DNA of 37,721 nt from an uncultured bacterium (GTDB lineage: Bacteria; Patescibacteriota; Minisyncoccia; Phycocordibacterales; UBA9973). The translations under genes and the position numbers were made by a program. Of this stretch, positions 5,372 to 7,490 are shown piece by piece (the stretch's first letter is position 1; every line of letters starts with the position of its first letter). Below the pieces are notes generated by a model. The model was not told the origin of the DNA. It ran no database searches and saw only the letters and a list, made by a program, of their open reading frames with translations. The stretch lies in contig CAITSL010000041.1 of the NCBI GenBank assembly GCA_903895055.1, positions 1 through 37,721 on the forward strand, read 5' to 3'.

Positions 5372-7490
5372 ACATTTTTAAAAATTCTTTCTCGTCTAAA
5401 ATTTTCACTCCCAATTTCTGCGCGTCAGTCAATTTGGACCCAGCCTCGGTGCCGGCCACGACATAAGAAGTATTTTTTGAAACCGAGCCAGAAACTTTGC
5501 CACCGAGATTGATTATTTTCTCTTTTACCAATTCCCGCGACATAGTGGCAAGCGTACCGGTTAGAACAAAGACTAAACCCGTAAATTTCCCTTCTTTTTT
5601 ATTTTCCACTTTTTCTATTTTCACACCGTTTTCTCTCAGTTTTTGGATAAATTCAAGATTTTTTTTATCGGCAAAATATTCATGCAAACTTTTGGAAACC
5701 GCCGGCCCAATATTTTCGATACTACTTATTTCAGCAAGGGTAGTCCTTGCTGAAATCATCAATTTCTCCAAGGTGCCAAAATTATTCGCCAAATCTCGCG
5801 CTGTCTCCTCCCCTACGTGCAGTATTCCAAGCGCCCATAAAAATCTTGAAAGTGGAATCTTTTTTTTCATTTCTATTTCTTTGATAATATTTAGCGCCGA
5901 CTTTTCGCCAAAGCGCTCAAGCGGAGCGATATCTTCTTTTTCCAAAGTAAAAATATCCGCCGCGTCGGTGATCAGGGCTTCATCTTTGAACCGACGTAAA
6001 ATTTTCGGCCCCAGTTCGTAAATTTCAAAAACCGAAACAAAATGTTCCAAAAATCTTTCGTTCTTGGCAGGGCATTTCGGGTTGGTGCAATAGTAGGCTA
6101 CGGAAAACTCGGGGGCGTGGGAAGTCCCGAGAGAAACGGTCTGGCCGGGGTGTGGGGCCCCGGAGAACCGAGGACCTTTCGAGCGGGAGCTTCCCGCGCC
6201 CCCGGCTTCCCTTTTTTCTACTCTTCCTCCGCAAGCCGGGCATTTGTCCGGAATTTTGAATTTTTTCTCTTTGCCCGTGCGCATTTTATCCAAAACCTCA
6301 ATCACCTTCGGAATCACATCTCCCGCTTTTTCGATTACCACCGTGTCCCCAATTTTTACCCCAAGCCGTTCTATCTGGTCAAAATTGTGCAGGGTCGCTT
6401 TGGAGATCAAAGAGCCTGCCACGGAAGTCGGAAAAAATATCGCGAGCGGGGTTAAGACTCCCGTACGCCCAACATTTATTCTGATATCTTTTATGATCGT
6501 GGTCGCCCGTTCCGCTGGATATTTATAAGCAATTACCCCCCGTGGATCTTTGCCTACCACTCCTAAATTTTCAAAAATATTCGTATCATCAATGTTCAGA
6601 ACCACTCCATCTATGCCAAAAGACAAACTGTCTCTGATTTGGGAAACTGTTTCGATAAAATTCGGCGCTTCTTTTAGGTGAACTATTCTCTTGGAATGTT
6701 CCTCAACCATAAAACCGAGATTGGCGAGTAATTCATGTTTTTGAGAATGCTTTTCCAAATAAGAGGCTAAACCTCTTTCAAGAGGTTTAGCCTCTTTGAG
6801 TTGTGCAATTTCATAAGCAAAAAAATCCAAGTGACGTTCTTTTACGATTTTGGAATCAAGTTGGCGAAGTGAACCGGCGGCGGCGTTCCGAGAATTCGCA
6901 AAAATCGGTTTTCCTTCAATTTCATTCTGTTTATTTAATTTTTTGAGCACCGGTTTTTTCATGATTGCTTCGCCTCGAACTTCAATTTTTTCTGGAAATG
7001 GAGATTTCAACACAAGCGGAATACTCCCAATCATCTTTAAATTCTCGGTTATGTCTTCACCCACTTCTCCGTCTCCCCTGGTGACTCCCCGCACAAATTT
7101 GCCATTTTCATAAATCAGCGAGATGGCCAGTCCATCTAATTTTAATTCACAAAAATATTCTAGCTCTGGGTTTGAAGAGAGCAATTTTAAATTTCGTTTT
7201 TCCCAAGCAAAAAGTTCTGCCTCGGAAAACACATTGCCGATCGAAAACATCGACACTTCGTGACGCACTTTTTTAAATTTATCGAGTGGCCTACCCGCTA
7301 CTCTATTTTCCCTGGAATTGAGATCAACGAATTCGGGATATTTTTCCAAAAGAGATTTGAGTTCCCTGTTGAGAGAATCATAGACATCATCCGTAACGCC
7401 AGCCACGTTTTCTATATGATAAGCGCTACGAAGTCGCGCGATTTCAATTCGCAATTTATTTATTCTTTTTTTAGCCTCTATTTTATCCAT
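5361..7490 (-). CDS. ligA: NAD-dependent DNA ligase LigA, with a roughly 33-aa insertion in the Zn finger
   Basis: 709 aa. Adenylation motif CELKLDG, OB fold, Cys4 zinc finger CPACGG...[11 protein letters not shown], HhH region and C-terminal BRCT (VFVLTGTL...[10 protein letters not shown]). Confidence 0.95.
6103..6205. repeat. GC-rich imperfect palindrome embedded in-frame in ligA
   Basis: Arms CGGGGGCGTGGGAAGTCCCG (6110..6129) and CGGGAGCTTCCCGCGCCCCCG (6184..6204) are near-complementary, with an inner CCGGGG/CCCCGG hairpin (6145..6163). GC content is far above the flanks. Frames on both strands are open here (track ORFs 6025..6243 and 6042..6455). Confidence 0.75.

Follow-up and report, generated by a model that had tools for sequence, protein, structure and literature searches.

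What is a GC-rich palindrome of about 110 nt doing inside the zinc finger of a DNA ligase? The question is raised by a 37,721-nt contig from an uncultured member of the Patescibacteria (CAITSL010000041.1, assembly GCA_903895055.1; hereafter the window, meaning the whole stretch of DNA that was analyzed), in which the gene for the NAD-dependent DNA ligase LigA carries, in frame, a complete 110-nt hairpin element (6102..6211, minus strand; LigA residues ~427-463). Here, we report that this hairpin belongs to a dispersed family, termed family A, whose copies have paired stems private to each copy, a core constrained at the nucleotide level, and an open frame wherever they lie in a gene, and which flip in place. 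We consider it probable (roughly 0.6) that the palindrome is a copy of a DNA-level hairpin element dispersed in Patescibacteria, translated and tolerated by its host gene, and a functional analogue of the Rickettsia palindromic elements (RPEs).

The host gene, ligA (5361..7490, minus strand; 709 aa), is an intact open reading frame (ORF) in the ORF list, and its product was identified by PDB, Pfam, and AlphaFold matches. The best LigA matches among PDB sequences reached an E value of 2.6e-143, and Pfam recovered adenylation, OB, HhH, and BRCT domains in the order of the class, with a four-cysteine (Cys4) zinc finger. Translation places the first Cys pair at C417 and C420 (6231..6242, minus strand) and the second at C468 and C473 (6072..6089, minus strand). 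LigA was compared with its 120 closest proteins (65-77% identical; named Paceibacterota, Nomurabacteria, or Minisyncoccia where named), and all four cysteines are invariant across the 121 sequences. An alignment with Escherichia coli LigA (PDB 2owo) has its gap at query 429->468 versus chain 420->426, with ~33 extra residues in the window LigA; the insert amounts to ~30 extra codons between both Cys pairs of the finger. A first-pass annotation, made from the letters of this DNA alone, had already described a zinc finger with an insert between its Cys pairs, extra relative to canonical LigA: the translation agrees with the first point exactly as it was put, and the alignment with the second. 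Because the insert splits the finger, the Pfam zinc-finger (ZBD) model covers only its C-terminal half and falls below the cut-off (24.0 bits; cut-off, 25.8).

The palindrome arms named in that annotation, 6110-6129 (CGGGGGCGTGGGAAGTCCCG) and 6184-6204 (CGGGAGCTTCCCGCGCCCCCG), are complementary except for one mismatch and one 1-nt bulge, with CCGGGG/CCCCGG enclosed; sequence and folds confirm a strong palindrome, and the full hairpin proved longer, at 6102..6211 (RNA and DNA folds, pair-table boundaries, and a covariance model). As RNA it has a minimum free energy of -71.1 kcal/mol (z = -5.6) and as DNA a folding energy of -37.8 kcal/mol (z = -3.9); 0/200 dinucleotide shuffles were equally stable in either case. 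On the minus strand, in gene orientation, the 5' arm of the outer stem (6179..6211) is followed by a conserved asymmetric core of 41 nt, AAGGTCCTCGGTTCTCC-[apical stem-loop]-GGCCAGACC (6138..6178; exact-pattern matches, 27-copy alignment, and synonymous sites), and by the 3' arm (6102..6137). Both arms were placed by folds and alignment and both are coding; their sequence is copy and lineage specific. GC content is 0.69 at the hairpin and 0.39 in the window as a whole. The window copy also has arms far GC-richer than the orthologous arms of relatives, with an element GC content of 0.72 versus 0.46-0.65 (loci L002, L008, L089, L092, L110, and L116); GC-rich arms in a 39% GC genome could come from GC-biased conversion between the arms. 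Readings of the hairpin as a bulge-helix-bulge, hammerhead, group II domain V, signal recognition particle, or tRNA-like core were dropped by eye, their defining motifs being missing.

The same sequence recurs in other genomes and in other genes. A stretch of ~45 nt is identical in the ligA genes of the window, L002, and L008, and L001 carries it reverse-complemented at the same ligA site. Metagenome contigs were scanned with the pattern AAGGTCCTCGGTTCTC-N(6-36)-GGCCAGACC, which matched exactly at 34 loci (9 in ligA and 25 elsewhere). Outside ligA, copies lie in frame in uvrD, uvrC, recG, holB (DNA polymerase III delta'), lepA, and the genes for a trypsin-like peptidase and a repetitive surface protein. 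Others take up whole spacers (ftsK-recA, dnaB-recR, uvrD-ksgA, beside pnp, between map and its neighbor, between two pilin-like genes, and after a DsbD_TM-domain gene) and mostly lie -6 to +10 nt from the ORFs on either side. Covariance model R1, built from 27 distinct copies and run on 1.2 Mb of sequence, matched the window ligA at 6106-6211 (82.4 bits; E = 3.9e-16) and found four further copies, among them a second inside the L001 ligA (10722-10825); it likewise found a second copy within uvrD. The two genes with a pair of family-A copies (uvrD of L091, 1950-4082; ligA of L001, 10001-12205) have unrelated outer stems on the members of each pair, and the second copies belong to a subtype, CTCGGGTCC..GACCAGCTCGA, common to both genomes. 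Neither BLAST nor the covariance model gave a second family-A copy in the 37.7-kb window.

Genomes bearing the core span 31-55% GC. About 10 of the ~18-19 distinct sites are in or beside replication, repair, or recombination genes (ligA twice, uvrD three times, uvrC, recG, holB, ftsK-recA, and dnaB-recR). No copy of the element occurred in viral contigs, phage records, or plasmid records, and there is therefore no sign of a phage or plasmid vehicle. Against Rfam, the window and 18 element-bearing loci gave only tRNAs at the gathering score and no matching family; at E <= 10 there were only subthreshold chance matches, mostly to microRNA-precursor models. A protein-database search with concatenated alternative-frame peptides returned 71 word-sharing candidates, none of which scored.

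Copies are 73-125 nt in total length, with a core match of 36-61 nt depending on the apical stem-loop. In the 27-copy alignment, AAGGTCCTCGGTTCTCC and GGCCAGACC-(A/G)TT are invariant, an invariance that is partly built in by the search pattern and with which positions beyond the pattern and protein-retrieved copies agree. Among the pattern matches, the sequence between the two halves varies from 11 to 36 nt, so the conserved halves are adjacent only when folded, and the folded form is probably what matters for the element. Beyond the core comes a stem of 15-30 bp, private in sequence to the individual copy; a pair of copies from the same genome or the same gene still differ in it. This stem covaries: 25 of its 31 pairs change on both sides in the alignment, and doubly changed cells number 169 against 68 ± 7 in shuffles (0/500 reach 169; all slid registers are lower).

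Third positions of identical residues are saturated across ligA (47-56% identical); inside the core they are identical at 14/14 sites, also among the genes of the window, L002, and L008, whose retrieval relied on protein similarity alone and not on the DNA pattern. One core has several readings depending on the host (KGPRFS..GQT and VLGSP..ARP(DH), with NGLAG..E(P/N)R(T/G) on the reverse strand); different hosts read it in three forward frames and in reverse. To judge from these comparisons, the constraint acts on the nucleic acid and not on the peptide. The 27 copies have no shared terminal repeats, their outer arms differing wholly even within one genome, and no consistent direct repeat that could be a target-site duplication lies beside the outermost pair, where boundaries are fuzzy as the stems vary. 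The forward-core strand is G-rich in 23/27 matches, a bias that is confounded with coding strand and shared ancestry and from which no conclusion was drawn.

Some copies have been turned around where they stand. The L001 element fits those of L089 and L115 better as its reverse complement (84-85 versus 71-74 identities), while the flanking ligA is collinear, and the flip includes the lineage-specific proximal stem along with the core. Between the neighboring LigA sequences P0098 and P0110, the outer-arm peptides are shared (KKIxGxxES.., ..LRVPEKxxSVAYYC) and the middle alone is inverted. An orthologous spacer copy is flipped as well, in L084 versus L094 and L104. The simplest cause of such in-place flips would be recombination between the inverted arms.

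At the zinc-finger loop itself, the insert is far from unique, contrary to what the first-pass annotation had implied: a long insert lies at the same site in 76/121 close LigA sequences. Segments of equivalent length are thus found among close relatives, and what stands of the earlier claim is that the segment is an insertion relative to LigA in general. The relatives range from 607 to 784 aa in length, which is mostly owed to this loop, and the distance from first to last Cys, canonically 22-25 residues, runs from 23 to 77 in this clade. The window and its 120 relatives divide into 44 sequences with a short loop, 32 with the window-type peptide, 6 with the opposite-strand peptide, and 38 with some other long insert; these 38 are mostly of other families, plus a few of family A (P0119, inverted; P0067, in another frame; P0097 and P0082, degenerate). 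Long inserts from close-relative loci were folded in 13 cases, and each is a strong hairpin (z, -3.9 to -7.1); the insert-free relatives L011, L015, and L051 have no hairpin at the same place (z, -0.7 to +1.9). Other core families are dispersed too: the core of L004 is reversed in L013 and occurs again in L105, and the hairpin family of L009 has two more copies nearby on the same contig. Several hairpin families are in circulation, and the zinc loop of LigA has hosted them repeatedly. In the ligA of a Verrucomicrobiae metagenome-assembled genome (L071, 11327-11446), an unrelated palindromic insert with the peptide ..GERPREPKNLGVRRHVGALESGDTSPQSK.. and a weaker fold (z = -1.9) sits in the same loop; its host being from a distant phylum, the loop accepts such inserts independently.

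The ~11 independent coding insertions of family A are all in frame and stop-free (the ligA zinc loop in forward, inverted, and third-frame form; ligA site 2; uvrD twice; uvrC; recG; holB; lepA; the peptidase; and the surface protein), and such uniform openness is expected only if the copies are translated. An AlphaFold2 model of LigA was built with the 121-sequence alignment and contains no metal. It has a mean predicted local distance difference test score (pLDDT) of 80.6, falls below 50 only at residues 430-445 and 447-460, and matches solved LigA structures (2owo at E = 2e-60). In the model, residues 430-460 form a low-confidence excursion at the tip of the beta-hairpin of the zinc finger, with strand 423-429 on one side and strand 461-468 on the other. 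Taken together, the conserved reading frame and the model suggest that the element is most likely transcribed and translated as a disordered surface loop of ~30 residues that would leave the Cys4 site intact. Where the first-pass annotation had left open whether the segment is tolerated as a loop or dealt with post-transcriptionally, the invariant cysteines, the modeled excursion, and the open frames favor the loop; post-transcriptional removal found no support of any kind.

How would such an element persist? In coding DNA, copies are seen to survive only where they are in frame, stop-free, and in a surface loop, which in ligA is the tip of the zinc-finger beta-hairpin. Under the reading of a dispersed, tolerated hairpin, the element would be recognized or propagated as a folded single strand or cruciform, its orientation relative to transcription being irrelevant. 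Its arms would be kept complementary by arm-to-arm template switching or conversion and not by selection base pair by base pair, and recombination between them would flip the inner part in place. In the lineage of the window, the copy would long have passed down together with ligA, being flipped, lost, or replaced by a hairpin of another family from time to time. It would be selfish or at least nonessential DNA.

Several points weigh against this account. No transposase, shared terminal inverted repeat, or target-site duplication was found, so mobility is deduced from distribution only; the transposase result covers 11 of ~40 window ORFs (12 with ligA) scanned against Pfam, with no systematic search for Y1/HUH enzymes. 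With one copy in 37.7 kb and only one additional family-A copy in the ~340 kb flanking the relatives' ligA (an estimate from locus lengths), the family is low-copy compared with typical RPEs or MITEs (miniature transposable elements with inverted repeats). The insert is patchy on the LigA tree, and this neighbor-joining tree fits repeated gain and repeated loss alike. Translation is a prediction from sequence and a structure model. A host function would also be in keeping with the strict conservation of the core at 31-55% genomic GC and with the overrepresentation of DNA-maintenance genes among hosts. A bolder version, which we put forward as tentative at best, is that the hairpins form an undescribed bacterial class, with a folded asymmetric tip bound by a putative structure-specific protein, locally rewritten stems, and a flip/flop like that of parvoviruses, kept at genome-maintenance genes of Patescibacteria. 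If true, such a class would represent either transposition by a new mechanism or a host signal linked to DNA uptake, repair, or recombination.

Among the competing explanations, the most substantial makes the element a host cis-element, bound in folded form by a conserved structure-specific protein, that marks or coregulates genome-maintenance genes and whose presence in ligA is selected; as a signal, it might serve recombination, priming, uptake, or a process linked to repair. A core invariant at saturated synonymous sites and across genomes from 31% to 55% GC speaks for such a role, as do half-sites juxtaposed only on folding and the contact of about half of the distinct sites with DNA replication, repair, or recombination genes, a bias comparable to that of the DNA uptake sequences of Neisseria and Haemophilus. 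The enrichment, however, is post hoc, with ~18 sites to go on, and gene length and tolerance act as confounders. Copies stand in both orientations relative to transcription (~4 forward and 6 reverse among maintenance-gene sites) and flip in place, and their intragenic positions are variable surface loops and not regulatory positions. Moreover, 44/121 close LigA sequences have no insert, others have unrelated hairpin families in the same loop, and one copy in 37.7 kb is far under the density of uptake sequences. We regard a host signal as unlikely. Less likely again is local template switching during replication (fold-back copying) with no mobile element, as proposed for Nematomorpha mitochondria; PMC6649704 takes up both this model and the idea that arm identity is actively maintained. 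Private, near-perfect arms in every copy and the perfect core-less coding palindromes of the window (6761-6796 in ligA and 29442-29475 in recG) speak for it, but one asymmetric core of 36-61 nt cannot have arisen independently at >19 loci spread over different genes and genomes; local template switching may account for stems and for palindromes without a core, not for the core itself. As to whether one arm is the native target and the other its inverted copy, the 5'-arm peptide IIGDTESS resembles the insert-free loop of P0066 (EIGDVQSS), and the recG insert of L096 adds fewer residues than its hairpin length; against this, other insert-free relatives (ELPxQxS) are unlike the arm, and deletion of an insert would explain P0066 just as well.

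Explanations at the level of the gene product fare worse. That the insert is a lineage-specific functional zinc-finger loop, selected for its peptide, might be read from the recurrence of the window-type peptide in 32 LigA sequences; at the same site, however, 6-7 relatives have the reverse-strand peptide, one has the third frame (VLGSP..ARPDH), and others have unrelated peptides or none, while conservation falls on synonymous sites and the insert has a pLDDT below 50. We consider this very improbable. Removal or skipping of the segment, by intron-like RNA excision or by programmed bypassing as in T4 gene 60 and the byp elements of Magnusiomyces, would suit a very stable GC-rich hairpin inside an AT-rich gene, and translation-bypassed palindromic inserts exist in yeast mitochondria, according to work cited in a passage of PMC6649704. 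Set against the ~11 independent coding copies, in both orientations and several frames, that are effectively a multiple of three in length and stop-free, and the lack of any Rfam intron or ribozyme match, this is harder still to credit. An assembly or chimera artifact, to which only the abrupt change in GC content points, is next to excluded by the presence of the same element at the same ligA site in many independent NCBI, ENA, and JGI assemblies, with graded divergence and compensatory stem changes.

For the preferred reading, a dispersed and tolerated hairpin element, the closest analogues are RPEs and the coding palindromes of Nematomorpha mitochondria; the architecture of a conserved tip on variable stems and the DNA-maintenance bias fit neither. 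RPEs, reportedly described by Ogata and colleagues in 2000 and 2002, are said to be ~100-150 bp long, to form several families, and to occur in spacers and in genes. They are palindromic repeats inserted in frame in housekeeping genes of a reduced genome and read through as extra peptide that is considered to suit the protein fold (PMC10969869). Family A resembles them in being a palindrome able to form a long hairpin (110 nt here and 73-125 nt among copies, beside ~100-150 bp), in its dispersed copies, including in-frame insertions in unrelated protein-coding genes as well as spacers, and in its setting of a reduced, AT-rich genome with several element families. It differs in that copies of an RPE family are alike along the whole element and encode a conserved peptide, whereas here only the apical core is shared, on private stems, and is read in several frames and on both strands. 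The host, to go by the relatives' names, belongs to Patescibacteria, a phylum other than that of Rickettsiales, and the likeness is one of description, not of sequence comparison. To our knowledge, neither in-place flipping nor a bias to DNA-maintenance genes has been described for RPEs.

The coding palindromes of Nematomorpha are proposed to have arms that template switching or conversion actively keeps identical, and hence a "parasitic" character (PMC6649704). The likeness lies in copy-specific, near-perfect inverted repeats within translated genes, with dynamic gain and loss. Those palindromes, however, are without a shared core, and both of their arms code for conserved protein regions; the hairpins here are extra loop sequence, and many have a conserved asymmetric tip across loci and genomes. 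The core-less palindromes at 6761-6796 and 29442-29475, which have no sequence shared among copies, are of the Nematomorpha type in this respect, and the ligA zinc-loop element fits it only partly.

Other classes share single traits with family A. Repetitive extragenic palindromes (REPs; including the bacterial interspersed mosaic elements, BIMEs, and the REPIN-RAYT system) and the ends of IS200/IS605 elements are imperfect asymmetric hairpins recognized as folded single-stranded DNA, independent of orientation and with low information outside the hairpin. Family A is likewise an imperfect asymmetric hairpin that is orientation-free relative to transcription, but REPs are extragenic with conserved stems, whereas many copies here are intragenic and in frame; no conserved flanking or foot tetranucleotide of the REP or IS200/IS605 kind appeared in the 27-copy alignment. 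MITEs such as Correia, ERIC, and Nezha are small, nonautonomous, structured, and dispersed and sometimes form in-frame fusions (PMC10969869). The element here is also small, structured, dispersed, and sometimes in frame, but has no shared terminal inverted repeats and no consistent target-site duplications. GC clusters of yeast mitochondria are GC-rich palindromic insertions in AT-rich genomes, including coding genes. With these and the byp elements, family A has in common a GC-rich palindromic insertion in an AT-rich genome, including in genes; they are organellar, and byp elements go untranslated, whereas the frame stays open through the element here. No coding copy of family A interrupts its frame or introduces stops, as bypassing would entail; all are open and in frame. 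DNA uptake sequences (DUS of Neisseria and USS of Haemophilus) are short, often paired as hairpins, and overrepresented in genome-maintenance genes, at ~1 per kb. Here too a short conserved DNA sequence, hairpin pairing, and an apparent genome-maintenance bias are seen, but at a density of at most 1 per ~38 kb and as a folded bipartite core, versus duplex 10- to 12-mers. No description of such elements in Patescibacteria was found in a literature search that was patchy, and prior description is possible.

An essential zinc-finger enzyme can carry a nucleic-acid-driven insert of ~30 residues at the tip of its metal-binding hairpin, and in this lineage it does so routinely. Ultrasmall Patescibacteria appear to harbor several families of in-frame hairpins in core genes, recalling Rickettsia, and family A departs from textbook models in its conserved tip on private stems, its in-place inversion, and what looks like a preference for DNA-maintenance genes. 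Should the core be a recognition site, it would give access to DNA transactions in organisms for which genetic manipulation is not yet possible. For annotation of the candidate phyla, such inserts split Pfam domain matches and inflate variation in protein length.

Further hairpins occur within the window. A second coding palindrome in ligA (6761..6796, minus strand; residues ~234-246) has perfect 17-nt arms 2 nt apart and no core (inverted-repeat scan; fold z = -8.0); ~8 residues there are extra versus most relatives, and the position is the one occupied by a full family-A element in the L001 ligA and by another insert in P0098. A possible third ligA hairpin (5706-5765; residues ~575-594) was picked up as a 60-nt fold with z = -5.3, where the relatives differ in the length of their sequence. 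The recG gene (28319..30715, plus strand) has four hairpin inserts, at 28540-28650, 29133-29239, 29442-29475, and 30031-30104. The 29133-29239 insert codes for ILNPRGSHSEGEGRRGEKLEE, a peptide almost identical to that inserted in the LigA zinc loop of P0103; that at 29442-29475 is a perfect core-less palindrome of 15 bp; and one of the recG inserts is a GC-rich CCTCCCCC/GGGGGAGG hairpin that resembles a sequence of L012. Near the end of the window (37445-37479) lies a perfect 16-bp palindrome, AAAATAAAAAGCATTT / AAATGCTTTTTATTTT, with a 3-nt loop.

ligA lies directly downstream of a type IV pilus or competence-like cluster (7501-19110) with pilins, a prepilin peptidase, and PilB/T/C-type ATPases, and this synteny is kept in relatives (L001-L003). 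ARAGORN placed two divergent tRNA-Ser genes, with anticodons GCT (27623-27712, minus strand) and the unusual ACT (27806-27893, plus strand), neither of which was reported by the Rfam tRNA model at the gathering score. A LAGLIDADG-domain ORF (2634-3311, minus strand), homing-endonuclease or WhiA-like, slightly overlaps a tRNA-Ser(GGA) gene (2569-2656, minus strand).

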